DNA of 64,000 nucleotides from NCBI GenBank assembly GCA_964390725.1, contig CAYMIW010000005.1, positions 29,709 through 93,708 of the forward strand, read 5' to 3'. The stretch comes from an uncultured Syntrophomonadaceae bacterium. Lineage in GTDB: Bacteria; Bacillota; Dethiobacteria; DTU022. Shown here in pieces: positions 2,032-39,872 of this stretch (positions are counted from its first letter, which is position 1; each line of letters opens with the position of its first letter). The position numbers were made by a program, and so were the translations under genes. The notes under the pieces were generated by a model, which had not been told where the DNA came from, ran no database searches, and saw only the letters and a program-made list of their open reading frames with translations.

Positions 2032-5619
<3,588 letters not shown>

Positions 5620-14542: not shown

Positions 14543-15388
14543 CTAAACTTCTTCTTTACGGGCGTGACCATCGAGCCATTTTCTTAAATAGTTAAATACT
14601 TCATCTTGTTCCGGCTCATTGTGTAGTTCATGGTTGAAGCCATCCCACACTTTGAAAGCGCATTCGCAGGATACAGTTTTAGCAATCTTTTCAGTTCCGC
14701 TGAGATAAGTGATCCTGTCATCGCTGCCGTGCATCAACAGCAGGGGGATCGCTATCGATGAAGCATTTTCATAAACATATTCTGCAGCTGCAAACATATC
14801 CTTGCCCATACCCAGGGAGATCTGGTTGTGAACCAGGGGATCATTCAGGTAAGCTTTGATTACGGCAGGGTTGCAGGATAACCCATCAAGTTCAAGCCCG
14901 TTGGCGATACATGTTCCAGGAGCAAGAGAACCGAGAATTTTTGCTGCCGCTACCTTGGCCTTCTGGCTGCTGGCCATTGTTTGCAGCCCCGGGCTGGTTA
15001 CAATGGCACCGTTTAACTCTGGCTGCCTCTGAATCAGAAAAAATAATACCAGCAGTCCTCCCAGGCTGTGTCCGTAAATAAATAGCGGCTTTTCAGAATC
15101 AAGCGCTCTTCCTTTTTCAACCAGGATATTAATATCATCTGCATGGTGGTCGAACGATGGTGAGTGGCCGCGCTTTCCATCAGATTTACCATGGCCACGC
15201 AGGTCATATGCCAGCATCGTATAACCTGCTGCAGTCAGTTTTTCAGCCCAGTGCCTGTAGCGACTACTGTGTTCGCCGAGTCCGTGCACCAGGCAGATTG
15301 TACCCCTTGTAGTGGATTCCGGTTCCCATTTTTGGGCATAAAGTTTTAATGCGTCATTGGTTGTCCACTGCATTTCTACATGTTTCAT
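14543..15388 (-). CDS. Alpha/beta hydrolase (lysophospholipase/monoacylglycerol lipase family)
   Basis: HGLGEH, DLRGHGKS, GHSLGG nucleophile elbow and HELHNE. Confidence 0.92.
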   Translation of the reverse strand: MKHVEMQWTTNDALKLYAQKWEPESTTRGTICLVHGLGEHSSRYRHWAEKLTAAGYTMLAYDLRGHGKSDGKRGHSPSFDHHADDINILVEKGRALDSEKPLFIYGHSLGGLLVLFFLIQRQPELNGAIVTSPGLQTMASSQKAKVAAAKILGSLAPGTCIANGLELDGLSCNPAVIKAYLNDPLVHNQISLGMGKDMFAAAEYVYENASSIAIPLLLMHGSDDRITYLSGTEKIAKTVSCECAFKVWDGFNHELHNEPEQDEVFNYLRKWLDGHARKEEV

Positions 15389-15435
15389 CTTTTTTACACC
15401 TCCTGAAAAATAATATTCTTGGGCATAATAATGCT

Positions 15436-17301: not shown

Positions 17302-17458
17302 GTGTTCTCCTTTGACAGGCTGAATAAAAATAAATATCATTGTTATAACACGCATATTTATTTATCTTTATATTACACCATTGAGAAAAAAATACCCATA
17401 CTGGTTCAATACTGGTTTGTAACAGAATATCTGCCGGGAAAGGAAGAGGGTTATAAAA

Positions 17459-18343
17459 ATGATGCCGTTTAAGTATGAAGGAGATCTTTACAGGCCGCCA
17501 AGTGAAGCAAAAAGTCTGATACTGCAGGCAACAATTGGTTGTTCTCACAACCGCTGTACATTTTGTTCCATGTACAAGCGGAAGCAGTTTCGCCTGAAAG
17601 CGGTCGAAGAAATAAAAGGTGAGATTAAAGCTGCTGCGGCTTACTATCCCCGGACCAAGAGGGTGTTTCTAGCTGACGGCAATGCCCTTGTTATTCCCAC
17701 CGAGGCTTTGCTTGAAATTCTTGAAACCCTTGATAGCGCGTTTCCTGCCCTCGAAAGGGTATCACTTTACGGGAACACCCAGGATCTTATCGAAAAAAAT
17801 GTTGGTGATTTGATTGAACTTAAAAATAATAAACTTGGCATAATCTATCTCGGCCTGGAAAGCGGAAGCAGCAGTGTTTTGAAAGAGATCCAGAAAGGGG
17901 TTACGCCCGATCAGATGATTGAGGGGTCGAATAAAGCCAAAGCAGCTGGCATCCCCCTTTCTGTAACTATTTTAAATGGCATTGCCGGGGTGGAAGGTTC
18001 TGAAGAACATGCTGAAGCAACAGCAGGGATGTTAAATCGAATTGATCCTGAATATCTGGGTTTGTTGAGCCTGATTACAGTTCCCGGGACACCTATTCAT
18101 CGTTCTTTCGAGGATGGTTTGCTGACGGAACTAAACCCCTGGCAGCTTCTGGAAGAGATCAGGATAATGATTCTCAATCTATCTCTTTCTGATTGTATTT
18201 TCCGGGCTAATCATGCCTCGAATTATCTTCCGCTCAAGGCTGTTTTATCAAGGGACAAGCAAGCGGTGCTTTCTGCCCTGGATACAGTTCTGGAGGGTAA
18301 AGCGCCTCATTCAATAAAGAGTGAATTCATGCGCGGTATATAG
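17459..18343 (+). CDS. Uncharacterised radical SAM protein
   Basis: YRPPSEA, GCSHNRCTFC (CX4CX2C spacing), FLADGNAL and FRANHASNY. Confidence 0.88.
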   Translation: MMPFKYEGDLYRPPSEAKSLILQATIGCSHNRCTFCSMYKRKQFRLKAVEEIKGEIKAAAAYYPRTKRVFLADGNALVIPTEALLEILETLDSAFPALERVSLYGNTQDLIEKNVGDLIELKNNKLGIIYLGLESGSSSVLKEIQKGVTPDQMIEGSNKAKAAGIPLSVTILNGIAGVEGSEEHAEATAGMLNRIDPEYLGLLSLITVPGTPIHRSFEDGLLTELNPWQLLEEIRIMILNLSLSDCIFRANHASNYLPLKAVLSRDKQAVLSALDTVLEGKAPHSIKSEFMRGI

Positions 18344-26179: not shown

Positions 26180-27520
26180 CTATTCTGTTGTTTTCCCCAA
26201 GCGCAGGGCCTTCTCTGCCTGCTGCTCAGCTATCTCTTTCTGGGGGTAGCGGGAAAAGACGATCACCCCGACCAGCAGGAACACGGCAGCAACTGGACCG
26301 GTCAGGCGCACACCCAGCGGCTCGGCCGGCGTGCTGCCGAACCACTCCAGCAAAAAACCGGTAATCAGGGTGGACAGGCCCATGGCCAGTTTTAGAATAA
26401 AGTTTTGCGCCCCGTAATACATCGCTTCCCGGCGCTGGCCGGAAAGGGTTACCTCCAGGTCTGACACCTCGGCGACAATGGCGTCTGGTACCATGAAAAT
26501 AGCAGCTACCGGAACGCCGGAAAGAGCCATCAAGAGATAGGCAAAAGCATTTGGCGAGAGGAAACCGATCGACTGCCCCATAAAATATGCCAAGGGTAAA
26601 ATGGTCATAAAGCCAGCCAGGGACGTCATCATAACCGCTTTTAAACCATATTTTTTGGCGCAGAGATTAAGCGGCATAAAAGACAGCAGGGCCACTACCA
26701 TGACAATGCCGAGAAAAATAACCGTGTCACCTTCCGTTCCTCCCAGCAGGATGGTTACATAGAGGGGAATGCAGAGGGTGATAATATTAAAACCGAGCCA
26801 GAAGGTAACATTGCCGACTAGGTAGATTATAAAGGGACGATTTTTAAAAGTAGTCCTGATTGCCTCGAAAAGTCCCAGTGTAGCCGGCTCGGCGACTGCA
26901 TAATCCTTTTCTTTAATTAAAAGGGGGAAATAAAGCATTACCAGGCTGATCAAGCCCATAGTCCAGACCATACCGTGCGGGCTGAAAAGTTCGATGATCA
27001 CCCCGCCGAGTCCGAAGGCGATGACCATGGCTATCAAGCCGAAGAAACCCTTGATCGTGGATAGATCGACCCGTTCGCGATTGGTGCGGGCCAGCTCCGG
27101 CAGCAGAGCAACATAGGGACAAACATAGGCAGTATAGAAAATAAAGTACAGGCCGAGCATAGCGATCAGATAAATACTGTTGATCGGAGCCTGTCCCGCC
27201 ACGGGAGGGTAGAAAAGGGCAATAAAAACGGCTACGTAAGCCACTCCGCTGAAGAGCATGAAGGGCATTCGCCGACCCAATTTCCCTCCGTGGTTATCGG
27301 ACCAGCGGGCGATGAGCGGGTCGGTCACCGCATCAACAACCCGGCCAAAAAACATAATAATTCCGAAAGTTGCCGGCGAGACAAGTGGTTCATAACCCCG
27401 GATCGGACTGACCACATAATAGAAAAGCAGCCAGGTTAGCAGGATACGATCAATGAGGGCAAAGCCGCCCGCACCGACACCATAAACCCATTTTGCCCAG
27501 GTGGGCAGATGTTTTTTCAT
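26180..27520 (-). CDS. MFS glycoside-pentoside-hexuronide (MelB/GPH-like) cation symporter
   Basis: DAVTDPLIARWSD, GRRMPF, PYVALLPEL and G.RREAMYYG motifs; ~12 hydrophobic segments. Confidence 0.88.
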   Translation of the reverse strand: MKKHLPTWAKWVYGVGAGGFALIDRILLTWLLFYYVVSPIRGYEPLVSPATFGIIMFFGRVVDAVTDPLIARWSDNHGGKLGRRMPFMLFSGVAYVAVFIALFYPPVAGQAPINSIYLIAMLGLYFIFYTAYVCPYVALLPELARTNRERVDLSTIKGFFGLIAMVIAFGLGGVIIELFSPHGMVWTMGLISLVMLYFPLLIKEKDYAVAEPATLGLFEAIRTTFKNRPFIIYLVGNVTFWLGFNIITLCIPLYVTILLGGTEGDTVIFLGIVMVVALLSFMPLNLCAKKYGLKAVMMTSLAGFMTILPLAYFMGQSIGFLSPNAFAYLLMALSGVPVAAIFMVPDAIVAEVSDLEVTLSGQRREAMYYGAQNFILKLAMGLSTLITGFLLEWFGSTPAEPLGVRLTGPVAAVFLLVGVIVFSRYPQKEIAEQQAEKALRLGKTTE

Positions 27521-27558
27521 TTCTCAATTCCTCCCCCATGGCTGAAATACAGATCTGA

Positions 27559-28896
27559 TTAAAGAGAAAAGCTGACTCCACGCAAAACAGCGCTGAATAA
27601 CAAAATAATAAAGAATACAAAGAAAAGGGCTGAAAAATAGGTCATTGCTATTGAGAACCGACCGGGCCTATATTCCTGTGGAAGATAATATTTGCAGATA
27701 TAGACAGCAAGGCAGGCTACAACAGGAAGCAACAGGGTGTCGATCACCGCGGTTAGCTGAAGCAGAATTACCGGCGAAGGAAGAATTGTTGCAAATAAAA
27801 CAGCAAGAACTACATAGACGGCGACAAAAATACGGTAGCTGCTTAACTTTACCTCCCTTTTACCGGATCTATCTTTCAGGGCACCGGCGGCGACCCGGCA
27901 TAAACCGTCAATGTTGGCAACCAGGGTGCTGTAAAGAGTGCCAAAAATGCCCACCAGGAAAATAGCCTCGCCATTTCTCCCGAAAAAATTTCCGGCGATG
28001 CCTGCCAGGACGAGCCCCAGTTCATCGCCTTCAGGAACCAGCCCTGCAGGCTTGAGAATTGCTGCGCCGGCAATTAAAAAACCAACTGTCAGCAATGCAG
28101 TGAGAACAGTATTGATACATAGATCGAGTTGGTGAACCCTGATCCAGCCTTTGATCCTTTCGTGGTCCCCGGGCAGGGGAGCTGCGGTGGATCTGGCCGC
28201 TCCCCTGCCACTTCCCTGTGTCCACATAGAAAACCAGATTGTACCGATGGCACCTGCTCCGGCCCAACCCAACAGGGGTACCAATTCCTGGAGAGAATCG
28301 TGAGGAAAAGTGATCATCAGGCCGGCCAACAGTTCGCCGGAAGAAGGCGGCACTCTGACTACGGCATAGACAATAAAATAAACAATTACAGCTACTAGCA
28401 GGCGTGAGACAGTTTGCAGGCTTTTATAGCTGCCGCAGTAAAGAATCAGGCCGGCTCCCAACAGGGCGATCAGAGCCCACGTAATATAGGATAAGCTGGG
28501 GAATAGCCCTTGCAGAGTGCTACCGACTGTTAAAGCAATTCCGCTCATGCCGACAACACTGACAATAAAAAAGAGCCAGAATATCCAGAGGATCCAGCCA
28601 GCCGGCAGTCGCAGGGGACCGATTTTCACTTTGATCCGGCCAAAAGCAGAAACGGCATTTTCACCGGTTATTACAGTATACCTGCCGATCAGTTCGGTCA
28701 TGAAAAACTTGATGAAGATGGTCAGAATTGGCGCCCACAGCAGAGCCAGGCCGTAAATAGCCCCGGCCCGGGTGGCAAAAACCAGGGATCCCACTCCCAC
28801 CGCACTGGCTGACCAGACCAGGCCCGGCCCGAGAAAAAGCAACCTGCGCCAGCCTTTTGGCGGCTCACTGACATTGAAAGGTGTTTTCCCCTCCAC
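27559..28896 (-). CDS. Nramp/YcsG-like APC-superfamily transporter lacking the DPGN metal motif
   Basis: LGPGLVWSASAVGVGSL...AGAIYG..LLW and E.IGRYT..TGE; ~11 TM segments. Confidence 0.8.
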   Translation of the reverse strand: MEGKTPFNVSEPPKGWRRLLFLGPGLVWSASAVGVGSLVFATRAGAIYGLALLWAPILTIFIKFFMTELIGRYTVITGENAVSAFGRIKVKIGPLRLPAGWILWIFWLFFIVSVVGMSGIALTVGSTLQGLFPSLSYITWALIALLGAGLILYCGSYKSLQTVSRLLVAVIVYFIVYAVVRVPPSSGELLAGLMITFPHDSLQELVPLLGWAGAGAIGTIWFSMWTQGSGRGAARSTAAPLPGDHERIKGWIRVHQLDLCINTVLTALLTVGFLIAGAAILKPAGLVPEGDELGLVLAGIAGNFFGRNGEAIFLVGIFGTLYSTLVANIDGLCRVAAGALKDRSGKREVKLSSYRIFVAVYVVLAVLFATILPSPVILLQLTAVIDTLLLPVVACLAVYICKYYLPQEYRPGRFSIAMTYFSALFFVFFIILLFSAVLRGVSFSL

Positions 28897-28918
28897 AATA
28901 TATTCCTCCCTTACTTGC

Positions 28919-29674
28919 TTAAATTTCCATGGTTTCTCCTGGATGAAGAATCCGGCAGGCAGTACCAGTTACGTGGAACTCCTTTTTCCGAACGGAGAGG
29001 AATGCTTCTACCTGGCTGGTATATTTTATTTTCAGGTTATTGCCCAGATCCAGATATTTGCCCCGGCAGGAATAATGCATTGGTATAAAAAGGCGCGGCT
29101 TGATCCTGGCAGCCAACGCTGCAGCGGCGGGCCAGTCCATTCCGTCTGCTCCCACCAGGGGATAGCGGGCACAGGAAACCTGTAAGAAAGCAAGATCAAG
29201 AGAGGTTACGGCCAGCTCATCAAGGCTGGGATGATCCCGTGTATCTCCGCTGAAATAAAGCTTCTTTGCCGACGGGCTGCTCATGACCAGGCCAATCGCC
29301 TGCGGGCTCAGCGGATGAACTGCTTTCACCGCCCGAACTGTAACACCTTTTCCCGACCAACTTTCGCCAGGATGCAGGCCGACAGCATCTAAACCTTTTT
29401 TCCTGAGTTTGCGAGCTGCATCTACAGCGGTGACTACCGTACTGCCGCAGCAACGGGCCAGAGCAGCAGCAGATTCATCCCAGTGATCCAGGTGAATATG
29501 GGAAAGAAGGATCAGGGTGCAGGAATTAATCTGGTCCGCTCCGAGAGCTGGCGGTTCGAGACGGGGAGCAAGAAGGGCACTTAATTTTCCGGTTGAAAAC
29601 CAGGGATCGGTCAGCACCGTCAGCGAACCGTCTTCAATATAAAAAGTAGCTTGCCCGATCGAGGTGATTTTCAT
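28919..29674 (-). CDS. MBL-fold metallo-hydrolase (UlaG-like, possible lactonase)
   Basis: TDPWF, SHIHLDH (HxHxDH), SGDT and PMHY motifs. Confidence 0.88.
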   Translation of the reverse strand: MKITSIGQATFYIEDGSLTVLTDPWFSTGKLSALLAPRLEPPALGADQINSCTLILLSHIHLDHWDESAAALARCCGSTVVTAVDAARKLRKKGLDAVGLHPGESWSGKGVTVRAVKAVHPLSPQAIGLVMSSPSAKKLYFSGDTRDHPSLDELAVTSLDLAFLQVSCARYPLVGADGMDWPAAAALAARIKPRLFIPMHYSCRGKYLDLGNNLKIKYTSQVEAFLSVRKKEFHVTGTACRILHPGETMEI

Positions 29675-29681
29675 TTATCTT

Positions 29682-30671
29682 TCACCTCCCGTCGATATTT
29701 TCTTTTCTAAGATACCAGTCAAGGGTTTCAAGATGTGATTCCAGATCTGTACGGGTCGGTTCCCAGCCGAGAATTAGAGCAGCTTTCTGAATATCAAATA
29801 GTGAATCGTGAAAAGCCAATTCCAGGTGTTGTGGGCTGATCGGCGGGGTGCCAAACTTTGCCCACAGTTTGATCACTGCCCTGACCGGCTTTTCTGGAAT
29901 ACAGAGCATCCGTGGTTTCTGGCCGGTCTTGCGGTAGAGGGCTTCGATCGTCTCACGCAGGGTGGGAACATTTTTTGAGCCAAGGTTAAAAATCTCTCCG
30001 TCGCCGCGGCTGCTACATAAGGCAAGGCGTACAGCTTCTGCTGCATCCCAGGCATCGACCATCTGCAGTTTTACTCTTCCACTGCCGGGAATGATCACCC
30101 GGCTACCTGTGGCAACAGCTTTAAACTGGTCTAACAGGAAGGGTTCATTTTGACCAGGGCCGGCGATCGTCGGAGGCCGAAAAATTACTGCCGGCAGCCC
30201 GCGGTGATGGATAGACAATACAAGTTTTTCACTCTCCACCTTGTTGCGTCCGTATTCACAAATGGGTTTAAGGGGGGCATCCTCAGGACAGGGGATGGTC
30301 GGTGGTGGCCCATACACCTCAACGCTGGAAATAAAAACACATTTTTTCAGATCGTGATCCAGAGATGCGGCAATAACATTTTCGGTGCCCCCGACATTGA
30401 TCTCGCGCATTATTTTTTCGTCGGGCTGAAACTGAGCCAGGGCGGCCGCGGAGTGAACCACGGCATCCATGCCGGCCACCGCCCTGTCCACAGTATTTTT
30501 GTCCCGGATATCGCCGCGGGTAAAAGGGCTAACCGCATTTTTTTCCTGATTGTTCGGTTCCCGGCAATCAAAACGGTATACGCGGAACCCGGCATCAACC
30601 AGGGTGTCCACCAGGTAATGGCCCAGGAATCCCTCGCTGCCGGTCACTAAAACTTTCCAGTTACTGTTCAT
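29682..30671 (-). CDS. Extended SDR NAD-dependent epimerase/dehydratase/dehydrogenase (likely start 30671 or 30677)
   Basis: [16 protein letters not shown] and YGRNK (YxxxK); GGAGGAGG RBS inside the 3' end of the dehydratase gene. Confidence 0.88.
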
Positions 30672-32289
30672 GATCATCCCTCCTCCATCCGGCTGCTCCG
30701 GTGTGAGCAGAACCGACCAGCGCCGCATAACGGGCTAGCATGCCGGTTAATTGCCGCTGTGGCGGGCGCCACTCTTTTCGGCGCCGCTGTAGCTCTTCTG
30801 GGGGCACTTCCAGATCAAGACGTCGTCCAGCCAGATCAATGACAATCATGTCGCCATCACGCACCAGGGCCAGGGGCCCCCCTTCCCGGGCTTCCGGAGC
30901 AACATGTCCCACTGCAAGGCCACGGGTAAAACCGGAAAAACGCCCATCGGTAACCAGGGCTATGGACTCGTCCATAGACTGCTGAAAAAGATATTCAGTA
31001 AGTGTAAGCAACTCCCGCATGCCCGGCCCGCCGCGCGGCCCCTCATAGCGGACAACCACCGTATCTCCTTCTTTAAATGCACCGGTCAGGGCTGCCTCGA
31101 TTGCTGCTTCTTCGCTGTCGAAAACTCTGGCCGGGCCGCGATGAATCACCTTTTCACTTTTTATTCCGCTCACTTTAAGAACAGCCGAATCAGGAGCGAG
31201 CGTACCGCGAAGTATGTTGATGCCGCCGAATGGCGCAAAGGGATCGGCGGGGTCCCTGAGCACAGGGTGCGAGGCAGTTTCAGCGCTGTCAATGTTTGCC
31301 CCTACGGAGCTGTTATTAACCGTAAGAGCTTCCCTGTGAATTAAATGGCCTACTTTCCTCATCACTGCCGGGATGCCTCCTGCCCGGTGCAGATCGAGAA
31401 CAGTGTATTCACCGTTTGGGAAGACAGCCGCAATACGGGGAACCCGGTTGGCGAAATCATTAAATTCGTTAATATCCAGCCTTACTCCCAGCTCATAGGC
31501 CAGGGCCAGTAAATGGAGAACGGCGTTGGTAGAGCCCCCGGTGGCCATCAATACGGTGATGGCATTTTCCAGTGCTAAACGGGTCATAATCCGTTTGGGG
31601 GTCAGTTCATTTTTCAGCAGGGCGAGAATGGAGGCGCCGCTTCTCTTGGACGAAAGGATTTTTTCATTGTGAACGGCATGAATTGTTGCGCTACCGGGCA
31701 AACTCATACCGAGAGCTTCGACCAAAAACTGCATAGTGTTGGCCGTTCCCATGCCTGAGCAAGCTCCTGCACCAGGGCAGTGGAGGGCAGCCATGAAAGG
31801 ATTGTTGTCTGGGACAAAAAGATTGTAAGGGAGCATGGCTCCGCCAGTGACAAAAATGGAAGGTAGATCAAGGCGAGCGGAGGCGATTAGCTGGGCGGGA
31901 ACGATTTTATCACAACCCGAGATGAAGACAAGGGCATCCAGATAATGAGCACGGGCCATCCCCTCAATACCGTCGGCGATGGTTTCTCGCTGTGGAAGGA
32001 TATATTTCATACCGGTCAGGCCGTTACTGTAACCGTCGCAGGGGGCAACGGTGTTGAATTCAAGGGGAGTTCCTCCCGCAGCCAGGATCCCATCTTTGAC
32101 TGCCCGGGCCAGATCGCGAAAATGGATATGACCGGGAACCAGCTCATTCCATGAATTGACCACCCCCACCAGGGGGCGGTCAATTTCCTCATCGGTCAAT
32201 CCCGCCCCGTGTAGCAGTTCTTTCCTGAGCATGGCTGTAAACAGCCGATCACTATTCTTCTGCAGGTTAGCACTTTTCGATTTCAGCAC
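30661..32289 (-). CDS. IlvD/EDD family Fe-S dihydroxy-acid/sugar-acid dehydratase (likely GTG start at 32289)
   Basis: [50 protein letters not shown] and TDGRFSG. Confidence 0.92.
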
Positions 32290-32303
32290 TGCAGAGCCTC
32301 CTT

Positions 32304-33578
32304 TCAAATTTGCTCGTAGGTTAAAATTTTCGCATTGTTACCATGCCGCTCCCTTGTTTTAGACAGCGCTGTAGAAAGATCGTCGCAATAATCCAGACCC
32401 AGGCGTTCTGCTTCAGGGGCTTTAATACCATCAGAAATCAGGATGACTTTAAACTTTTTGCGGGCGATAATATCTCCGATCAGGGCCAGATGGGAAGCTG
32501 CAGTAAGATCGTCAACTTTACCCTGCTTAACCAGAGCGGCCACCTCATTATATGGCCGGTAGCCCCACTCCAGCACGGCCGAATGCTCTTTTGCTACCCC
32601 GTCAGGGCAGGCTGCAACCAGAACTAGGGTGCCCTCTTCCCGTAGAAGGATATTGGCCACGTAGAGACCGGCCATTGCTTCCCACAGCTCCGGGCGGTCT
32701 GTTCCACCACCAACAATCATTACATCGGGTTGTTCCAGGGGCAGGTCAAGCAGGGGAACAGAACGGGATTTTTCGATAAGAAATCGGTGAGCCTGTACGA
32801 AGTCACCGGCGGCCAACCCGCAGATCTGCCCCAGTTTATTCTCAATAACGTTAATAATTAGGTGCAGGCCGACCATGCTAACCGCTTTTTCGATTTCTAA
32901 GCGCATCGGGTTGTTTTCCTGGCCGAATATATTTTCTACGGGATAGCTCGCTGCCGTCCAGTGAAAATAGTCAGTGGAATCTTTTCCGGCCAGTCCCGGC
33001 AGAATGATTTTTGCTCCACCTGACCAGCCAGCCACGGGATGTGGTTTTACTGTTCCCAGGCCAATGTGCAGCTTATCCTCGAAAAGGGCACGGTTAAACT
33101 GTAGCGGTATGCCGAGGGGTGAACAACCTTGCATGATCAGCTCGTCTGGTTCATTCCAGTTATGCCGCAGGAAGCGATAGTGTTCGGTAATATATGGGCC
33201 CCACTGTTTTTTCAAATCGGCGTCACTCATCGGTTTATGGGTTCCACCGGCAACAGCGATGATGACCCGATCGGGTCCGAACCCTAGCTTGAACAGTTCA
33301 TCCAGGAGAACAGTAAGAACCGGGGTCAGGTCGGTGCGCCGAGTATGATCGGGCACGGCAATGAGGACCTCCTCTCTGCCCCGCAGCAGCTCAACTAACG
33401 GCGGGCTGCCGATTGGACTGGAAAGGGCCTTTAGTAGATCACCTTTCAGATCACTCAGCGGTTTGGCAGGAGGTATGGAGGCGGTCTTGACCAGGTTATT
33501 CTCCTCAATTTCCGCGGTTAGATACTGATCGTAATAGCAAAAACGGACTTCCTTCTTAGAGCCGTCCATATTTTTCAT
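32304..33578 (-). CDS. LarA-family nickel-pincer-dependent 2-hydroxyacid racemase/epimerase
   Basis: [38 protein letters not shown] and ACPDG motifs. Confidence 0.9.
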
Positions 33579-34269
33579 ACACTTCCTTCAGGGAACGTCC
33601 TTCCCGGAGCTCCTGACGGGAGCGCCGTTCATCGTGAACCCTTTCTTCAGATAGCTTCAGAACCTGCCTGAGATCGACTTCACTGATTGGGATAACTACT
33701 ACCCCATCTCGATCGGCAAAGATTATATCACCCGGGTTAACTTTGACACCGCCACAGGTGATGGGCAGGTTCACTCCGCTTAGCTGAGCCCGGCCAACCG
33801 AATCGGTGGGAATGCTGCCCCGGGCCCAGACCGGAAAATCGATCTCCAGCAGGCGGGGGATGTCGCGAATCGGTCCGTCAACTACTGCACCAACGGAGCT
33901 GCAGTAGTAACGGGCTGTAGTTCCCATCAGTTCGCCGAAAGCTCCGGAACCGTAGAAACCGTTGGTGGTAATAACCATCATTGCTCCCCGGGGGACATTT
34001 TCAAAGACAGCTTCTAAAATTCCCTTCACAAATGATGGGTCCATGTCGGAAAGATGTCGCGGCATTGATGAATCGGCCATGTCTTCTTCCATTGTGAAAG
34101 CGGGCCCGGCAGCTGTCCGGTTGGAAATGATCGGGCTGAAACCCGCCGCCAGGGATGCTTCGAAAAATCCGAGTTCATCAAGAGAATCGGACACGGCTGG
34201 CGTATAGAGCTTTTCCAACCGTCGGCAAATCTGAAATATTTCTTCCTCTGAGAAGTTCATGCTGATCAC
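33556..34269 (-). CDS. RraA-family HMG/CHA-type class II pyruvate aldolase
   Basis: AVSDSLD, FGELM, VVDGPIRD and V.PGDIIFADRDGVVVIP. Confidence 0.88.
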   Translation of the reverse strand: MISMNFSEEEIFQICRRLEKLYTPAVSDSLDELGFFEASLAAGFSPIISNRTAAGPAFTMEEDMADSSMPRHLSDMDPSFVKGILEAVFENVPRGAMMVITTNGFYGSGAFGELMGTTARYYCSSVGAVVDGPIRDIPRLLEIDFPVWARGSIPTDSVGRAQLSGVNLPITCGGVKVNPGDIIFADRDGVVVIPISEVDLRQVLKLSEERVHDERRSRQELREGRSLKEVYEKYGRL

Positions 34270-37061
34270 TCCTTCATTAAAATTTGCGCTGTCTGAATCT
34301 TTCCCGGGGCGAGAATCAGCTTGGTCCGGGAATCACCTTCTGCTTTCAGTTCCATACTGACCGGACGTATTGGTTGATTGTCCAGCAAGTAAAACTCTTT
34401 TGCAATTGAGGAATAGTTGCAAAGACGTATATAAATTCTATCTTCTTCCCGGAACAGGGCAGTGATATTGAGACCGGGGGGTAAAACTGGCAGAAAATTA
34501 TAAATGGCAGACGCTTTTCGAGGTTCGTCCTGATCAATAGTCCCAACCAAAAAAGGTCTGGCAAAGGATGTTGAAGTGCTAATTAGTTCTTCGGGTGTGA
34601 TAGCACCATAATGCAGGGCAGAACGGTAGGTAAGTCTACCCTTCAGCCTGGCATAGAGGGAGCCGCCGGCGCGTAGAGAATCGTCACTGGCATAAAGCCA
34701 TTCACGGGGAGCCCAGGCAAGGACTGTCTGCAGGAGGCCCTGCTCTGCCTCCCAGCGGCAGCCGAAAGTGCCCTTCCTGAGAAGTGACCATCCCGGATTG
34801 CTGCCGCTAGCAGGAGCAGCAAATCCATCGGCATTAAAATTAGTTGCTTTTCGACTCTCGACCAGGAATGCGCCGCCTGTGAGAATTTCAGAAGCTGGAT
34901 TAAAATGAAAATTCAGGTTCAGTTTCTTCTCATTCTGCATATAATAAGCGCGGCCTGGGCTTGATTCTTTTTTCTCAGGTCCGAAATAAAGGCCCTCTCC
35001 GCAATCTAAGGTCACATTGATTTCAATGCGGGGCAGGGTTCGGTAAAAGACGAACTCCTCCTCAAAAAGTATTTTACCGATGCTGCCCTGGAGAAGATAA
35101 ATATCAGCTATCGGACCACAGGACAGCCTCTGAAGAGTTGATTTTTGCAGGCGGGAATCATAGATCTGTCCTTCTCCGATAACTGTCAGGTAGCCACCTC
35201 TGATAAACTGCTTTGTTTCTAATGCTCTCAGCTCCAGTTCTCCCTCCATGGTAAGCCGGGCCTGGTAGCACTCGCCTGTGAAAAGAACTTCTTCTTCCAC
35301 CTGTAGCGGCTTACAGTTTTTATCGGGGAGACTTTCTTCAATAGTAAAGATAGCCGTTTCTCCTTTAAATGGCGGCAGCTCGAGGGTGTAAAGCAAATAG
35401 CTTCCATTTGTTCCTGTCACAGACTGGGTTGCCCCGATGACCCCATCGGCGCAGATTAACTGCTGTCGCTGATCTGAATCTTTATCGAGGGGGATGATCA
35501 CGGTCTCACGACGCCGAAAGGGAAGGGAGTTGAAGGTAGTAATGCTTGTACTTTTTTGCCTGGGTAGAACCTCATCTTTTTCCAGCAGCCTGGCCCCGGT
35601 AAGAGCAGCAAAAGAACCTGAAACAACCTCCCGGGCTTTACTGGTAGCAGCGGTTGCAAGTTGAACAGCAATTTCTCCCATCGGCAGGCTGTGCAGGCGA
35701 GAATGCCAGGGGCTGCAGAGGTGTAGATCGTGATGCTGGGATTGAAGGGCGCTTTTCCAGGCCTCCCTCAGAGCATCCAGGTTGCCTGGTTCTCCACTGC
35801 CGCTGATAAAAACAAGCGTGTCCAGTTGCTCTGCTTCCAGAATTTGATAGGTCGCTTCTTGGGCTGCCTTTAGGGGAGCATCGCCCATTAATCCATAGGG
35901 ATAATAACAGGGAAAGTCATCACTGCTAAAGTAAGTTTCAATCGGAGAAGGGAACTTTTTGCGGGCATTAGAAAGCAACTTCAGATATTTTGTAGGGGTG
36001 ATAAAACGAGCCACACCGGACGCTGCCAGGCTGCAAGCCTCCTTCAGGGGCGCTCCGGAAAGAATATTAAAATCCTCGAAGCGGGAGAGCAGTGGGTAAT
36101 CAAGGTCATGGTCGCTGGCAAGATTTCTAAAATGCTCTAATCCCTCGCTGTTATAATTGGTTAATCCCTCAGGGAGCAAATGCGCACCCATAAAGTGAAC
36201 GGGATCATCCGGCCCGTAATGCATGGATATTTCCCGGGGAATACTTTGCTCATCAAGAGCTTCCCTGTCAAAAGCACTGCCATAATGCATAAAGGGATAA
36301 CGTGGAATCGTTTTGATTCGGCTGCCGTCGGGAGCTTGCCAGTAGAAGAGGGGGAAAGACAAGGATGGATCACTGCCGAAAGGAGCCCAGTGTGTTCTTA
36401 AGATTGCCAGTTGATATCTGAAAGAGTTAAGAATCTGGGGTAGCTGGGGAAAGAAAGAGGGTTCCTGGGCGGCAAAGGTTTGCACTTCAGCAGCAAGGGC
36501 TTCCCTGATCATAAGTCGGCCATAGTAGAAATGGCGGATATATGATTCGCCGTCTAGTAATCCAGCCAGAGGTTGGGCAAAGGTGCCATTTACCAGTTCC
36601 AGTCGACCATTGTCAAGAGCCTTCCGGAGGTCCGCGATTGCTTCAGGCATCTCTGCAGTCATTACCGAAAAGGTGTGGCCATCTATTTCAAATGCGCTGG
36701 AGAGAGAATGACACTTTTCGAGCCTCTTTAGAATCGGTTTGGCCACCACCGGCCAATTATATATTTTCCAGGTTTCACCACCGGGAATAACAATCCAGTC
36801 CCAGAATGTTGCTCCGCCGTGATAACCATCAATAAAATAGACAGTCTGATTCGGTTCGGCAGATGTCGCTTCAGGTTTCCCTGAAGAACGACGGTAGTCA
36901 CAGTAAAATTCCAAAGCAACCCAGCTTTTTAAAGCCGCCGCCACCGCTCGGGCTAACCACTTAAATAGTATTGTCCCAATTTTCATTTGCACCATCTTTC
37001 TAAGCCGTGTTGAATTCGACAGGGAAAAATCACTGGCCGACGAAAGATATTGTTTATCCAT
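34266..37061 (-). CDS. Divergent GH38 (alpha-mannosidase)-like glycoside hydrolase, 931 aa
   Basis: GRLELVNG..AQP...LDGESYIRH, QLPQIL, FYWQAPDGSRI, QHHD (middle domain) and FNSLPFRR motifs. Confidence 0.72.
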   Translation of the reverse strand: MDKQYLSSASDFSLSNSTRLRKMVQMKIGTILFKWLARAVAAALKSWVALEFYCDYRRSSGKPEATSAEPNQTVYFIDGYHGGATFWDWIVIPGGETWKIYNWPVVAKPILKRLEKCHSLSSAFEIDGHTFSVMTAEMPEAIADLRKALDNGRLELVNGTFAQPLAGLLDGESYIRHFYYGRLMIREALAAEVQTFAAQEPSFFPQLPQILNSFRYQLAILRTHWAPFGSDPSLSFPLFYWQAPDGSRIKTIPRYPFMHYGSAFDREALDEQSIPREISMHYGPDDPVHFMGAHLLPEGLTNYNSEGLEHFRNLASDHDLDYPLLSRFEDFNILSGAPLKEACSLAASGVARFITPTKYLKLLSNARKKFPSPIETYFSSDDFPCYYPYGLMGDAPLKAAQEATYQILEAEQLDTLVFISGSGEPGNLDALREAWKSALQSQHHDLHLCSPWHSRLHSLPMGEIAVQLATAATSKAREVVSGSFAALTGARLLEKDEVLPRQKSTSITTFNSLPFRRRETVIIPLDKDSDQRQQLICADGVIGATQSVTGTNGSYLLYTLELPPFKGETAIFTIEESLPDKNCKPLQVEEEVLFTGECYQARLTMEGELELRALETKQFIRGGYLTVIGEGQIYDSRLQKSTLQRLSCGPIADIYLLQGSIGKILFEEEFVFYRTLPRIEINVTLDCGEGLYFGPEKKESSPGRAYYMQNEKKLNLNFHFNPASEILTGGAFLVESRKATNFNADGFAAPASGSNPGWSLLRKGTFGCRWEAEQGLLQTVLAWAPREWLYASDDSLRAGGSLYARLKGRLTYRSALHYGAITPEELISTSTSFARPFLVGTIDQDEPRKASAIYNFLPVLPPGLNITALFREEDRIYIRLCNYSSIAKEFYLLDNQPIRPVSMELKAEGDSRTKLILAPGKIQTAQILMKE

Positions 37062-37088
37062 CTGCTCTGCATTAATCCATAATAATTA

Positions 37089-37811
37089 TCAGTTTACCTC
37101 GACCAGCACTTTAAGAGCTGTTCCATCCCGGAGAGCATTAAACCCCCTTTTAATCTCAGATAAAGGAACACAGTGGGAAATATTTTTTTCCAAAGGAAGC
37201 AGGCCACTTTCCAGCAACCTGACAGCAGTTGGAAATGTATGACAGGCGATGTAACTTCCGAAGATTTTTAGTTCCCGATGGGTGATATCATTTTGAACAA
37301 TTGCTTTACAGGCGGTGTTATCCTGACCGACAAGAAGGATACTGCCTCCGGATCGACAGATCCGCACAGCTTCTTCAAAGAGACAGCCAGCTGCATCAAC
37401 TACCACTTCCGCGCCGGACATCTCGTTGTCTGTGGTTAAGGTCTCAGCCGGATCGATGCTAATTGGATCAAGGGCTTCTGCTGCCGGGCAGATCCGGCGG
37501 GCTGTTTCCCGGCGTTGGGGGGATGTATCAGTTAGGACAATCTTTCCTGCACCACCGGCGCCGAATAAGAGCGCAAATATTACACCGATCGGTCCGGCGC
37601 CCAGGATTGCCTGCTCTACAGAAGCATGAGTAGAGATGATATAAAGAGAAGATAGCGGTACAACAGCATAAGATACAAACCCGCCATCAAGAAAAATACC
37701 CAGGGTAGTCATCGCCGAACAGGAGTTGGGCATGCCTTTTCGGCAGGCCAGGCGGACCAGGTCCAACTGTCCTGGGGCTTTAAACTGTGCAGCCAGCATT
37801 AACTGTTTCAA
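37089..37811 (-). pseudogene. Zn-dependent (sorbitol/threonine dehydrogenase-like) MDR gene with two in-frame internal deletions; probably non-catalytic
   Basis: Keeps CRKG.PN.C...LGI..DGGF, GAGPIG and the ALKVLV C-terminus. Lacks the C.G.D.H, GHE, GDRV and EP segments; 240 aa against ~340 typical. Confidence 0.7.
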
Positions 37812-37926
37812 GGATGTTCAGCTCCTTGACTACATATTAAGAAAGCTTTTTTACTGCAAAGCATTTATTTCGCCAACTATTTGGAAATCGTTGTAAAAAA
37901 TATCTTCTGGCCCGCCGACCCGCGCT

Positions 37927-39012
37927 TTAGCTACAACCGCAGCTACGGCGGATAAGTAGCTCGGGGGCAAGAACTATTTTACTGAATTCTTTTTTCTGGC
38001 CTTCTTTCAGTTCAGTCAGGATTAGTTCAGCGGCGACTTGCCCCAGTTTATTCTTCGGCTGGGCAATGGTCGTCAGGCAAACCCGTGGATAAGAGGCAAA
38101 ACTTATATCGTCAAAGCCGATGACAGCCAGATCACCGGGGATGTTCAGGCCCAGTTCATCGGCCGCCTGCATAACTCCCATGGCCAGGAGGTCATTGGCA
38201 GCAAAAATAGCGTCGGGTCGGCCGGCCATATTCAGCAGTTTCAGAGTGTTGTGGTATCCTGACTTCCAGGTAAAAGATCCGTAGCGGCACAGTTCAGGAT
38301 CAATTTCTATTCCAGCCTCGGCAAGGGACTTCAAAAAACCGGAAAATCGTTCCTTGGTTGCTTGCGTTCCCTCCAGCCCACCGATAAAAGCTATCCGCTT
38401 GTAGCCATGCTCTAAAAGGTGGCAGCCGGCCAGGTACCCCCCACGGACATCATCGATAATGACCTGGTTGCATTGAATATCCCGCGCAAAGCTGCTTATG
38501 GCCACCAGGGGAAGGCAGGTTTGGGCGAACTTTTCGGCAATCGTACCGTTGTCATTAGAAGAAGCCAGAATCAACCCGTCAATCCGTCGGCTTTCGAAGA
38601 GAGACAAAAAAGACAGCTCTTTTTTGCCATTCCAGTTTGTATTGCAAAGAAAAACAGAATACCCTGCCCTGGCTGCGGCTTCCTCAACCCCGCGGGCAAC
38701 TTCCGGGAAAAAGGGGTTGGTGATATCTGGAATAACCAGCGCCAGAGCGCAGGCTTGCCGTGTTACCAGGCTGCGTGCAGCGGCATTGGGAGAATAGCCA
38801 AGGCGCTCTGCTGCTTCCTGCACCCTAAACTTGGTGTCCTTATTTACTCCGGGGCGGTTGTTTAATGCCCTGGAAACAGTTGCGTAGGATATTCCAGCTT
38901 CTGCGGCGATATCTTTTATGGTCACGCTGTTTTTTCTTCTTTTGTGTTGCAATAAAATCCGCCTTTCTGCTTCAGGATTACTGATCTTCCCAATCCATTG
39001 ATATTTAGCCAT
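37927..39012 (-). CDS. LacI family transcriptional regulator
   Basis: TIKDIAAEAGISYATVSRALN HTH, YSPNAAARSL, IPGDLAVIGFDD and LTTIAQP. Confidence 0.95.
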   Translation of the reverse strand: MAKYQWIGKISNPEAERRILLQHKRRKNSVTIKDIAAEAGISYATVSRALNNRPGVNKDTKFRVQEAAERLGYSPNAAARSLVTRQACALALVIPDITNPFFPEVARGVEEAAARAGYSVFLCNTNWNGKKELSFLSLFESRRIDGLILASSNDNGTIAEKFAQTCLPLVAISSFARDIQCNQVIIDDVRGGYLAGCHLLEHGYKRIAFIGGLEGTQATKERFSGFLKSLAEAGIEIDPELCRYGSFTWKSGYHNTLKLLNMAGRPDAIFAANDLLAMGVMQAADELGLNIPGDLAVIGFDDISFASYPRVCLTTIAQPKNKLGQVAAELILTELKEGQKKEFSKIVLAPELLIRRSCGCS

Positions 39013-39043
39013 TCCTGGTCGGGAAAACAGGCGTTATATGAGC

Positions 39044-39061
39044 ATTGTAAACGTTTACAAT
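39044..39061. promoter_or_regulatory. LacI-family operator (perfect 18-bp palindrome)
   Basis: ATTGTAAAC-GTTTACAAT with the central CG typical of LacI/CcpA sites, ~30 nt upstream of the LacI ORF. Confidence 0.8.
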
Positions 39062-39158
39062 AGCTGGTCGAAAAAATGGCCGAATAGGTCGGCACACATC
39101 ATACTTCGTCATTAAATTAAAATACCCTCTATTCTGACATTTTTTTTTGAAATCTAAA

Positions 39159-39211
39159 AATTGTCAGGGAATTGTCAGGGGGACGAATTGTCAGGGGGAC
39201 GGGGTTGTTGA
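39159..39211 (+). repeat. Three nested, progressively longer copies of AATTGTCAGGG(GGACG)(GGGTTGTTGA)
   Basis: Copies start at 39159, 39170 and 39186; a further AATTGTCAGG lies at 39645. Confidence 0.8.
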
Positions 39212-39531
39212 GCTGTTTGCGCTGCAGGCCGAGGAAGTCGGCACCTCGCCATTTTTTAAAATCCACATATTCTTCTTAGCAGGTGGTTTCGCGACAGCTT
39301 TCTGAGCAGGCTTTCCATGCCAGGATGCTGGTAGATGACTCCCGCTAAGCTTAAGTTCCACATCACCCTGACCGAATAATCATTGCGGCTATTTTAACTC
39401 ACTCTTTCTAAATGCTGTGTCAGCCATTCATCAGGCATATACTCAAGCACCAGCTTAAGTCTTTCCAGATTACCTAATTTTTCAACCTCAGCCCAGTTAA
39501 AAATCTGTTGCTGTCGAATTATAATAGCCAT
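39212..39531 (-). mobile_element. Degenerate DDE transposase N-terminal remnant (IS1182/IS5-like, DUF772-type domain)
   Basis: Reads MAIIIRQQQIFNWAEVEKLGNLERLKLVLEYMPDEWL...*NSRNDYSVRVMWN..LAGVIYQHPGMESLLRKLSRN..LRRICGF*, with in-frame stops and no catalytic domain. Family assignment is from recollection. Confidence 0.72.
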
Positions 39532-39872
39532 CAGGGAAGTCCTTCTTTGTTGTGGTTTTGCCTAAAGACTATTCCGACAAAGTTGAGGATTTCTTTTTTT
39601 ATTACCTTCTACACCATGATCATGTAAATAGATCTAATCTAGATAATTGTCAGGATATATATAGGGTCAATTCTGCCACCACCAGCTAATCAAACTGACA
39701 TAATCTAGATCCTAAAGACTCACTTTGGGGGAAAATGTCTTTGTATCTTCTTATAATGTCTTAACTCTCAGGCCTTGCCGAAGATCGCAAATGGTTCGAA
39801 TAAAAATGCTTGCCATACAGGTAAATCGTGATAGACCGGCGAATAACTAATTATCAATAAGCAGGAGGGAAA

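Follow-up and report, generated by a model that had tools for sequence, protein, structure and literature searches.

What compound is broken down by a gene cluster that sets a LarA-type nickel-pincer enzyme between an RraA-like protein and an IlvD/EDD-family dehydratase? The question is raised by a 64,000-nucleotide stretch of DNA, hereafter the window, from an uncultured Syntrophomonadaceae bacterium (assembly GCA_964390725.1, contig CAYMIW010000005.1), in which ten consecutive genes on the minus strand occupy positions 26180-39012. An initial annotation, made from the letters of the window, had described these genes as co-oriented and tightly packed and had named a family for each, and the list of open reading frames (ORFs) together with searches of Pfam and NCBIfam bore this out in every item. 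We find that five of the genes, encoding the RraA-like protein, the LarA homolog, the dehydratase, a short-chain dehydrogenase/reductase (SDR) and a metallo-β-lactamase (MBL)-fold hydrolase, stay together across phyla, and we think it on balance probable that the cluster as a whole takes up a glycoside and turns its sugar-acid or lactone moiety into pyruvate in the cytoplasm, without ATP, from an operon controlled by LacI. The ten genes, beginning at the head of the array, are:

37927-39012, minus strand: LacI-family repressor, first gene of the array (Pfam LacI and Peripla_BP_1/3)
37089-37811, minus strand: degenerate medium-chain zinc-dependent dehydrogenase (MDR), 240 residues (ADH_zinc_N only)
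34266-37061, minus strand: GH38-fold glycosidase-like protein, 931-residue ORF (weak matches, GH57 34 bits and GH38N 30 bits)
33556-34269, minus strand: RraA-like protein, probable metal-dependent C-C lyase (Pfam RraA-like PF03737, 106.2 bits)
32304-33578, minus strand: LarA homolog (PF09861, Lar_N, 138.7 bits; PF21113, LarA_C, 27.5 bits)
30661-32307, minus strand: IlvD/EDD iron-sulfur (Fe-S) dehydratase (PF00920, 361.9 bits; PF24877, 237.3 bits)
29682-30728, minus strand: extended SDR of the NAD-dependent epimerase/dehydratase family (Pfam Epimerase, 134 bits)
28919-29674, minus strand: MBL-fold hydrolase, candidate lactonase (Lactamase_B_2)
27559-28896, minus strand: Nramp-family membrane transporter (PF01566, 58.6 bits; NF037982, 99.6 bits against a cut-off of 50)
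26180-27520, minus strand: cation symporter of the GPH (glycoside-pentoside-hexuronide) family, last gene of the array (MFS_2, 174 bits; TIGR00792, 124.6 bits against a cut-off of 231)

In the ORF list, neighbouring reading frames overlap by 4 bp (glycosidase-like gene and RraA), 23 bp (RraA and LarA), 4 bp (LarA and IlvD) and 68 bp (IlvD and SDR); the remaining intergenic gaps measure 7-38 bp, with the exception of the 115 bp that separate the LacI gene from the MDR remnant.

A five-gene core is kept in order across phyla

We scanned two public collections with the LarA protein, which gave 79 loci from genomes and 80 from metagenomes (fetched loci are given as L and a number, and the window's own genome as G000), and we defined the clade of interest by a LarA identity of at least 40%. 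Eleven of the 79 genome loci belong to this clade, and all 11 carry an RraA-like gene immediately upstream and an IlvD-like gene immediately downstream of the LarA gene; two of the 80 metagenome loci reach the same identity and both carry the core, so that the RraA-like gene lies directly upstream of the LarA gene in every clade locus. The 13 loci with the core order are exactly those with a LarA at or above the 40% level, and RraA and IlvD occur together in none of the 146 loci whose LarA falls below it. The SDR gene comes next in 10 of the 11 genome loci and the MBL gene in 9, the gaps coinciding with contig ends. The metagenome-assembled genomes (MAGs) that hold the clade loci are labelled Syntrophomonadaceae, Bacillota, Bacteriovoracaceae, Leptospiraceae/Leptospirales and Spirochaetota, and further as delta-proteobacterium, Thermodesulfobacteriota, Geothermincolia and Solincola, about five phyla in total. 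The co-occurrence check that had been suggested with the initial annotation thus finds the gene order kept across phyla, and the RraA-LarA-IlvD-SDR-MBL grouping is more than chance.

Pairs drawn from the core are also found in other LarA groups. An IlvD-like gene accompanies the LarA gene in L026, L031, L046, L053, L058, L065 and L097, and an RraA-like gene does so in L083, L101, L150 and L154; since these LarA groups are distant ones, the two links recur independently. In L046, L053, L058 and L065, all from Synergistaceae/Synergistota MAGs, LarA (about 30% identity) is encoded back to back with an IlvD-like protein of 39-42% identity, and in L083, L101, L150 and L154 (LarA identity 30-33%) the RraA-like gene (32-41% identity) lies 1-2 kb upstream.

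The remaining genes of the array accompany the core in part of the genome loci. A gene for the Nramp-like protein is found in 5 of the 11 (split in one of them), a GH38-like gene in 4 of the 11 by tblastn, with a distant one in L016, and the GPH gene in 3 of the 11. L014 holds a probable GH38-like gene, the C-terminal half of whose product matches the family profile (93.9% probability). In L011, L017 and L051 a full-length MDR gene is part of the core region or adjoins it, GntR regulators of the FCD type are encoded in L014, L015 and L020, and a LacI protein 76% identical to that of the window, which itself reaches no NCBIfam equivalog cut-off, is encoded at the same position in L011. The genes that flank the core in L013 were considered as a TRAP transporter, a reading that we rejected, as they encode FtsY, a PfkB kinase and YicC.

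The dehydratase is separate from biosynthetic IlvD

G000 holds three IlvD-family genes. The biosynthetic one (771.9 bits) lies on contig C12 between ilvE and ilvB, which encodes acetolactate synthase. The cluster dehydratase, by comparison, stays just under both NCBIfam cut-offs for dihydroxyacid dehydratase (DHAD; PRK00911, 625 against 644; TIGR00110, 612.4 against 618.15), and the DHAD scores of its orthologs are similarly borderline, that of L010 being over the cut-off (633.4) and those of L014 and L020 under it (610.4 and 608.9); the models for L-arabinonate, D-xylonate and 6-phosphogluconate dehydratases match far more weakly. Its identity is 44% with the IlvD of its own genome as against 52-56% with the cluster orthologs of other phyla. 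The 13 cluster copies fall together, with 100/100 support, in an unrooted maximum-likelihood tree of 21 sequences, none of them biochemically characterised, from which the duplicate L093 and the partial L022 and L046 genes were left out.

With the DHAD of M. tuberculosis (6OVT), to which it aligns lengthwise in two stretches (447 bits), the cluster dehydratase shares both domains, the CDK motif and three cysteines, and the Fe-S cysteine motifs CDG, GCDK and GAC-x-GM are kept in the window and in 12 of 12 aligned orthologs. It differs from IlvD, beyond its scores, in a clade-specific deletion of 16 residues, in reading CDGYSNG where DHAD has CDGIAMN, and in its lack of an ilv context. The cluster gene as the biosynthetic ilvD is a reading that we rejected, the ilv-linked gene being on another contig and the cluster copies grouping separately; a grouping with biosynthetic IlvD, which would have counted against the pathway as first proposed, is not what the tree gives. 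The third paralog (C17:5603-7219, L090; 634 bits, over the DHAD cut-off) adjoins a gene for a Gfo/Idh/MocA oxidoreductase and may be another sugar-acid dehydratase annotated as IlvD.

Catalytic residues are intact in the other core enzymes

The LarA homolog is the single LarA-family match in G000 at E<=1e-20. With the LarA superfamily, which includes lactate, malate and 2-hydroxyglutarate racemases and D-gluconate 2-epimerase (PMC7583248, PMC11770544, PMC11851776), it shares the Lar_N and LarA_C domains, the lysine to which the cofactor, nickel-pincer nucleotide (NPN), is tethered, the nickel-binding histidine and both catalytic histidines. Specifically, D77, R80, K190 and H206, which align with 5HUQ, occur in 18 of 18 clade sequences, and so do the two catalytic histidines, H114 and H180; the equivalents in the reference enzyme are Asp72/Arg75, the NPN-tethering Lys184, the nickel ligand His200, His108 and His174 (PMC7583248). 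LarC (212 bits), LarE (287.6 bits) and LarB (299.3 bits) are all encoded in G000, each over its cut-off, and the genes for synthesis of the cofactor are thus present. From the characterised LarAH groups, the homolog differs in missing their cut-offs widely: its best NCBIfam match is the malate racemase LarAH6 (213.1 bits against 500), six of six LarA models remain below cut-off, and the matches to the hexonate model (81 bits) and to 4NAR (64 bits) are weaker still.

The catalytic motifs of the RraA-like protein, the SDR and the MBL protein are likewise intact in alignments with their orthologs. In RraA-fold enzymes an Arg-Asp pair is catalytic. This pair aligns with that of the HMG/CHA aldolase 3NOJ, which together with RraAS2 (5X15) is the best solved relative, and it is invariant in 13 of 13 sequences (the window and 12 loci). 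All NCBIfam matches of the protein fall below cut-off (PRK09262, 102 against 179; TIGR02798, 90 against 304.5), and this sets it apart from HMG/CHA aldolase and from FlDet (PMC8563752; compared by description alone), with which it has in common an RraA-like domain, a length of about 235 residues and the Arg-Asp pair. FlDet is described as an RraA-fold enzyme that dehydrates and decarboxylates 2-keto-3-deoxy-hexarate to 2-oxoglutarate semialdehyde (PMC8563752). Aldol cleavage had been put forward as the last step of the pathway; because of the FlDet precedent it is not the sole option, and the protein is probably a pyruvate aldolase, an oxaloacetate-type decarboxylase or a keto-deoxy-aldarate dehydratase/decarboxylase. 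The named RraA relatives (from NCBIfam, the PDB and FlDet) all act on dicarboxylic 2-oxo acids.

In the SDR, the motifs TGSxGxxG, SSVEVYG and Y-G-R-N/D-K (Ser...YxxxK) are conserved in 11 of 11 aligned sequences, the partial L018 gene and the duplicate L093 having been left out; translation probably begins some 16 codons further downstream than the listed ATG. The MBL protein of the window and 10 orthologs (L093 again left out) share H-x-H-x-D-H and the later His, Asp and His, except that the last His of L012 lies beyond the contig end. A role of the MBL protein as the ring-opening hydrolase IolN of a Thermotoga-type inositol route was rejected: IolN belongs to another family, and equivalogs of the Thermotoga-type inositol enzymes IolM and IolN are encoded on contigs C30 and C37. 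There, apart from the cluster, C30:17160-19481 and C37:28245-29168 (L229-L231) hold an IolM gene (497.6 bits) adjoining an IolN gene (309 bits) and a second IolN gene (516 bits).

A probable GH38-derived glycosidase and a putative carrier of the Nramp fold

The large protein of the array had been called a GH38-like hydrolase, and as to fold this description stands. The AlphaFold2 (AF2) model of the 931-residue protein (pLDDT 89.3, pTM 0.93) has GH38 alpha-mannosidases as its top Foldseek matches (5KBP, 2WYI; E 3.9e-33, TM-score 0.66-0.68, 12-15% identity), as against TM-scores of 0.26-0.31 for GH57 structures, and the GH57 profile PF03065 matches residues 109-221 only, at 34 bits. The full-length fold (TM-score 0.66) and the motifs GES-x-IRQ, PQ(L/I)PQI, W-x-x-x-DGS and QHHD are shared with GH38 alpha-mannosidases; the active-site motifs are not. 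In GH38, H-x-H-x-D binds zinc and P-D-x-F-G holds the nucleophile, and a Glu nucleophile is the pattern of GH57. Alignment with eight GH38-like Bacillota proteins (five of them with both canonical motifs) and 7UFR places GYHGG where GH38 has its zinc motif and Q-E-P-S-F where it has P-D-x-F-G; the position of the Asp nucleophile is taken by Gln, Ser or Gly, and the adjoining Glu in this nucleophile region is nearly invariant. Both the zinc motif and the Asp nucleophile are therefore absent, and the protein appears to belong to a rare, divergent glycosidase family derived from GH38, with an apparent Glu nucleophile; out of 1.84 billion sequences, 796 representatives match it at E<=1e-3 and 30 do so at E<=1e-30.

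At its N-terminus the AF2 model has a long helix, the sequence mixes charged and hydrophobic residues, and in the database the gene is called from residue 23 of the ORF onwards (window 36990-37061). GH38-like matches were found in 52 of 401 genomes of the phylum, and 97 neighbours from 20 regions were scanned; most encode ABC permeases, ROK kinases, PTS (phosphotransferase system) components, GH125, GH4 and GH20, the ordinary context of GH38 mannosidases. As a clue to specificity these contexts were set aside as uninformative, the local identity of the distant proteins to that of the window being 23-28%.

The Nramp-like protein passes the Pfam and NCBIfam thresholds of its family, and Atlas features place it among Nramp clusters, but neither metal-site motif, DPGN or MPH by name, is present. 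In 6 of 6 full-length copies (the window and five orthologs), DPGN of the first transmembrane helix is replaced by S/A-V-G-V-G/A and MPH of the sixth by G-T-I; the V-G-V-G-S of the window protein aligns at the first-helix metal site in the structures of human NRAMP1 and NRAMP2. Orthologs of 56-66% identity are linked to the core in L014, L015, L020, L051 and L094, and the protein thus differs from Nramp metal transporters also in being tied to a catabolic module and not to metal homeostasis. The family name first given to it holds, but the function that the name implies is the less likely one: with moderate confidence we regard the protein as a putative solute carrier rather than a metal carrier, and as a candidate importer of the monomer. 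Import of nickel or manganese for the enzymes of the cluster is disfavoured, both metal-site motifs being missing. In L011 (14548-16033) the Nramp-like gene is split into ORFs of 285 and 233 residues, 82% identical over half the length, by a frameshift or an assembly error.

Orthologs of the GPH symporter with 80-90% identity occur in L010, L093 and L011, and a relative with 26% identity in L016; every one of these GPH-bearing loci also has a GH38-like gene. The MDR gene is a true remnant, as had been proposed: compared with its full-length, 62%-identical ortholog in L011, it has lost 78 and 25 residues in two in-frame deletions and with them the GroES-like catalytic zinc domain, and the same deleted form is found with no differences in contigs of two more sequencing runs (X5 record 7, X6 record 13).

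A proposed route and the place of LarA in it

From the families and motifs described above we infer a route whose individual reactions, order and substrate are all conjectural. The GPH symporter would import a glycoside and the Nramp-fold carrier, its metal site lost, the free monomer. The GH38-fold glycosidase would split the glycoside by means of its apparent Glu nucleophile, whereupon the SDR and the MBL hydrolase, through oxidation or reduction and lactone opening, would yield an open-chain 2,3-dihydroxy acid. The LarA-type enzyme would invert one carbinol centre by hydride transfer and so fit the acid to the stereospecific IlvD-type dehydratase, which would form a 2-keto-3-deoxy acid; cleavage or decarboxylation by the RraA-fold protein would then give pyruvate or a close 2-oxo acid together with a small aldehyde or CO2. 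The residues on which these steps would depend are all present, namely the two histidines, tether lysine and nickel-binding histidine of LarA, the three cysteines and CDK of the dehydratase, the Ser and YxxxK of the SDR, the HxHxDH of the MBL protein and the Arg-Asp pair of the RraA-like protein. Relative to the interpretation first offered, which is partly supported, the synteny and the identity of the dehydratase stand, and the points on LarA, Nramp, the glycosidase and kinases are corrected.

Several observations weigh against this route. In the substrate complex of Isosphaera pallida LarA, Gln295, Lys298, Arg73 and two histidines bind the carboxylate and Tyr294 binds the 2-hydroxyl group (PMC11851776). 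The equivalents of Tyr294, Gln295 and Lys298 are replaced in our clade by W299 (18 of 18), by E, G or A at position 300 (12, 5 and 1 sequences) and by A303 (18 of 18), so that the lactate/malate racemase motif Y-Q-x-x-K reads W-(E/G/A)-x-x-A. Because the carboxylate-binding Gln295/Lys298 pair is absent, the LarA homolog may be inactive on a free 2-hydroxy acid. The SDR is nearest to HpnA-like proteins, 3-oxo-acid reductases and, as its closest structure, a GDP-sugar 4-epimerase (about 90 bits), and not to known sugar 1-dehydrogenases or uronate dehydrogenases. The MBL protein is distant from any characterised enzyme, its nearest solved relative being the UPF0173 hydrolase TM_1162 at 47 bits. 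The loci that establish the core are mostly derived from MAGs, and the metagenome loci L093 and L094 are apparent duplicates of L010 and L013. With its MDR degenerate, the window's copy of the pathway is perhaps incomplete. Finally, the core of L012 shares its gene array with a 2-keto-3-deoxygluconate (KDG) kinase and Eda, and the route there is not kinase-free overall.

The initial annotation had the LarA homolog epimerise C2 of an aldonate. This claim rested on the behaviour of the family, and with Tyr294, Gln295 and Lys298 replaced throughout the clade it is not supported as stated: because the carboxylate residues are replaced and every LarAH cut-off is missed, a C2 epimerase of an aldonate is a reasonable guess at what the enzyme may be and no consequence of its family membership. 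The same substitutions raise the possibility that the homolog is not a 2-hydroxy-acid epimerase but performs another NPN-dependent hydride transfer, such as carbinol inversion in a neutral sugar, a lactone or a keto-sugar, or an internal redox isomerisation. The substituted residues are those that contact the carboxylate and the 2-hydroxyl group in the I. pallida enzyme (PMC11851776), the catalytic histidines, tether lysine and nickel-binding histidine are invariant in 18 of 18 sequences, and the clade-specific invariant polar residues H264, R265, C324, H332, S362 and H363 could form a different pocket; moreover, Desguin et al. remark, in section 8 of their paper, that groups without K298 might catalyse another hydride-mediated reaction (PMC7583248). 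Nevertheless, Arg80, the third carboxylate ligand, is invariant, the constant neighbours, a 2,3-dihydroxy-acid dehydratase and a 2-oxo-acid lyase, indicate acid substrates, and no LarA homolog with a non-acid substrate is reported in the parts of the LarA literature that we consulted. We regard such a departure from acid epimerisation as unlikely.

Related loci hint at acid-sugar chemistry

The surroundings of the core in other genomes bear on its substrate. In L012 the core belongs to a co-directional array that encodes, in order, an IolG-like fragment, a 366-residue ORF, Eda (263.8 against a cut-off of 238), a KDG-kinase-like protein, tagaturonate reductase (603.9 against 359) and an altronate-dehydratase-like protein, followed by the GH38-like protein and the core; L015 also has a KDG-kinase-like gene near the core. 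The description of the pathway as kinase-free is thus true within the window, where none of the ten operon proteins matches a kinase or PTS family in Pfam or NCBIfam, but does not extend to L012, where the KDG kinase gene is co-directional, or without reservation to L015. In L011 the GPH gene is followed by a gene for an IolM equivalog (493.8 against a cut-off of 450). The FCD regulators of L015 and L020 have the acid sensors NanR, LldR, PdhR, UxuR and ExuR as their best matches. Because of the hexuronate genes of L012, the FCD regulators, the RraA-family precedents and the GPH carrier, these hints point to hexuronate, hexonate or aldarate chemistry, and the imported glycoside is possibly a hexuronide or a glycosyl-inositol. 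The most likely class of substrate is an acidic or easily oxidised hexose derivative of the uronate/aldarate or hexonate type. Further genes stand near the core in single loci: L016 encodes ferredoxin-domain and radical-SAM proteins after the core (15107-17523), and L015 encodes an anaerobic sulfatase maturase (3232-4518), which may hint at sulfated glycans.

Within the general model, two versions appear to us about equally likely, each quite possible but well short of probable. In the first, a neutral glycoside such as an alpha-mannoside would yield an aldose, which the SDR would oxidise to a lactone; after opening by the MBL protein, LarA would epimerise C2 of the aldonate (of the mannonate-to-gluconate type), and the resulting 2-keto-3-deoxy-aldonate would be split into pyruvate and glyceraldehyde in a manner resembling the non-phosphorylative Entner-Doudoroff pathway. 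This would make use of the alpha-mannosidase fold detected by Foldseek and of all four generic enzyme types, whose motifs are intact; the LarA superfamily includes D-gluconate 2-epimerases, and a KDG-type intermediate would suit the KDG-kinase-like genes that L012 and L015 have beside the core. The substrates known for IlvD/EDD enzymes have the 2R,3S configuration in common, which is not found in mannonate, and this too speaks for an epimerisation of the mannonate-to-gluconate kind. The LarA homolog, however, is far from the gluconate epimerases (it scores 81 bits with the hexonate model and 64 with 4NAR, as compared with 213 for the malate racemase model) and lacks the carboxylate-binding Gln and Lys; the zinc site of GH38, which binds O2 and O3 of mannose, is missing from the glycosidase; the named RraA-family relatives use dicarboxylic 2-oxo acids; and loci with an FCD regulator and an Nramp-like gene in which no GH38-like gene was detected (L015, L051, L094) suggest uptake of an acid monomer.

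The second version begins with a hexuronide, whose uronate the SDR would convert to an aldaro-lactone; the MBL protein would open it, LarA would epimerise the product, and the 2-keto-3-deoxy-aldarate left by the dehydratase would be cleaved by the RraA-fold protein into pyruvate and tartronate semialdehyde, or dehydrated and decarboxylated by it to 2-oxoglutarate semialdehyde. It has a precedent in FlDet, the RraA-fold dehydratase/decarboxylase of keto-deoxy-hexarate (PMC8563752), and the other named RraA relatives are HMG/CHA aldolase and oxaloacetate decarboxylase. The best LarA profile is that of malate racemases, which are also tartrate epimerases, and another LarA homolog interconverts pentarates. 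In addition, the GPH (hexuronide) family supplies a transporter, L012 joins the core with tagaturonate reductase, an altronate-dehydratase-like protein, KDG kinase and Eda, and the FCD regulators resemble acid sensors of the UxuR/ExuR type. Set against this are the SDR, among whose 33 solved relatives at E<=1e-10 there is no uronate dehydrogenase; the lack, across the loci, of a conserved aldehyde dehydrogenase for the semialdehyde product; the loss of Lys298, which argues against tighter binding of an anionic substrate; and the oxidative chemistry, which would be awkward for a fermenting or syntrophic anaerobe.

The affinity of LarA for malate racemases with tartrate epimerase side activity also brings into view a module for C4 dicarboxylates, in which LarA would be a tartrate epimerase, the IlvD-like enzyme a tartrate dehydratase forming oxaloacetate, and the RraA-like protein a decarboxylase forming pyruvate, with the SDR and the MBL protein supplying the diacid from some precursor. 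Small 2,3-dihydroxy acids are the substrates of DHAD, to which the dehydratase is closest, and HMG/CHA aldolases are also named oxaloacetate decarboxylases. Such a module would leave the GH38-fold glycosidase and the GPH carrier, found with the core in at least 5 of the 11 genome loci, without a role, and the SDR and MBL proteins, which are present wherever contigs allow, without a clear one; the loss of Lys298 and Gln295, moreover, is unsuited to a dicarboxylate. We consider it very improbable.

A more radical form of the model, which we hold to be rather doubtful, would have LarA perform a non-canonical hydride transfer on a lactone, a keto-sugar acid or another non-classical substrate and pass the product to a DHAD-derived dehydratase and then to the RraA lyase. 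In this new route the Nramp fold would be repurposed for an organic solute, the glycosidase would represent a new GH38-derived family with a Glu nucleophile, and the source would be a natural glycoside; hexuronides and glycosyl-inositols are the leads, because IolM (L011) and the genes of the tagaturonate pathway (L012) adjoin the cluster.

Relation to known kinase-free pathways

The general model of glycoside uptake and sugar-acid breakdown has much in common with the non-phosphorylative Entner-Doudoroff, Dahms, L-rhamnose LRA1-4 and sulfo-Entner-Doudoroff pathways (compare PMC6336799 and PMC9795676), which are kinase-free and comprise a dehydrogenase, a lactonase, a 2,3-dehydratase and a pyruvate-releasing lyase. 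Unlike those routes, our module adds a LarA-type nickel-pincer enzyme, its lyase has the RraA fold and is not an aldolase of the DHDPS, HpcH or KDPG type, its hydrolase has the MBL fold and is not a lactonase of the SMP30 or amidohydrolase kind, and its SDR is of the extended and not the classical type. Some non-phosphorylative sugar routes also use a dehydratase of the IlvD/EDD family.

The type of pathway, a kinase-independent oxidative sugar-acid route, is therefore already known. The set of enzymes had been called a combination not recognised from any described pathway, and our literature search agrees, having found no paper on it, nor one that describes this set of families, this LarA subgroup, an Nramp protein without its metal site or a glycosidase derived from GH38. 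The words 'dehydratase' and 'aldolase' are absent from the main texts of two LarA survey papers, although the supplementary context tables of PMC7583248 may record the association with IlvD and RraA.

LarA-type nickel-pincer enzymes are widespread and few have a known physiological pathway, and the conserved dehydratase and lyase context helps in the search for a substrate. Solving the pathway would assign functions to at least five protein subfamilies at once, would test both acid epimerisation by LarA enzymes that lack the carboxylate-binding Lys and Gln and organic-solute transport by the Nramp fold, would probably add a GH38-derived family to the glycoside hydrolases, and would provide a kinase-independent route of sugar-acid fermentation in anaerobes of sludge and sediment.

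Regulation and genomic setting of the cluster

Two features lie at the head of the array:

39045-39060: perfect 16-bp palindrome, a likely (predicted) LacI-type operator, overlapping the -10 hexamer upstream of lacI
39256-39561, minus strand: N-terminal remnant of an insertion sequence (IS) transposase (DUF772), truncated and with an in-frame TAA, present as two contiguous ORFs in the same frame

The palindrome is contained in a promoter-like site on the minus strand (39071-39044) and is unique in the window even when up to 3 mismatches are allowed. Of the 228 fetched loci, L011 alone repeats its 14-bp core, at a distance of about 95 bp upstream of the LacI ortholog, and it is also the only one to have that ortholog. 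The palindrome and promoter-like site are compatible with a single autoregulated operon.

Most of the cluster has a G+C content of 0.48-0.55, which falls to 0.46 at the upstream edge; that of the flanks is 0.41-0.46. The transposase remnant, read through with X at the stop, scores 23.3 bits against the DUF772 cut-off of 23.1. Among 30 related genomes searched, LarA orthologs of 64-65% identity occur in 2 (1 of the 4 in the same genus), the other LarA matches being paralogs of about 30% identity or less. Because of the raised G+C content, the IS remnant and the presence of orthologs in 2 of 30 relatives, the ten-gene cluster is probably an accessory operon acquired by horizontal transfer.

An island of this kind might also be decaying and without function in this genome, a reading that we judge very unlikely for the core. 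The loss of the catalytic domain of the MDR speaks for decay, as do the IS remnant and the repeat, a branch point of assemblies, that flank the cluster and the restriction of orthologs to 2 of the 30 relatives. Yet 9 of the 10 genes are full length, the five core enzymes have intact catalytic motifs, the operator and promoter-like site are intact, and the MDR lies outside the universal core. Moreover, across 36500-39700 contigs of four other runs are identical over the cluster part, to about 39170, and show single-base gaps at the flanking repeat only.

Within 39172-39211 the contigs of these four runs (X4-X7) break or branch, with the same alternative flank in each; a CCCTGACAATT-like unit is directly repeated there in short copies, and the segment looks like a multi-copy repeat or the end of a mobile element at the edge of the island. 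Beyond the cluster, one flank encodes a DEAD-box helicase, an NMT1-like binding protein and a histidine kinase and the other an arginine deiminase and GlpX, all of them housekeeping or signalling proteins unrelated to it. The 19 sequencing runs listed for the stretch are all DNA and are labelled sludge metagenome.

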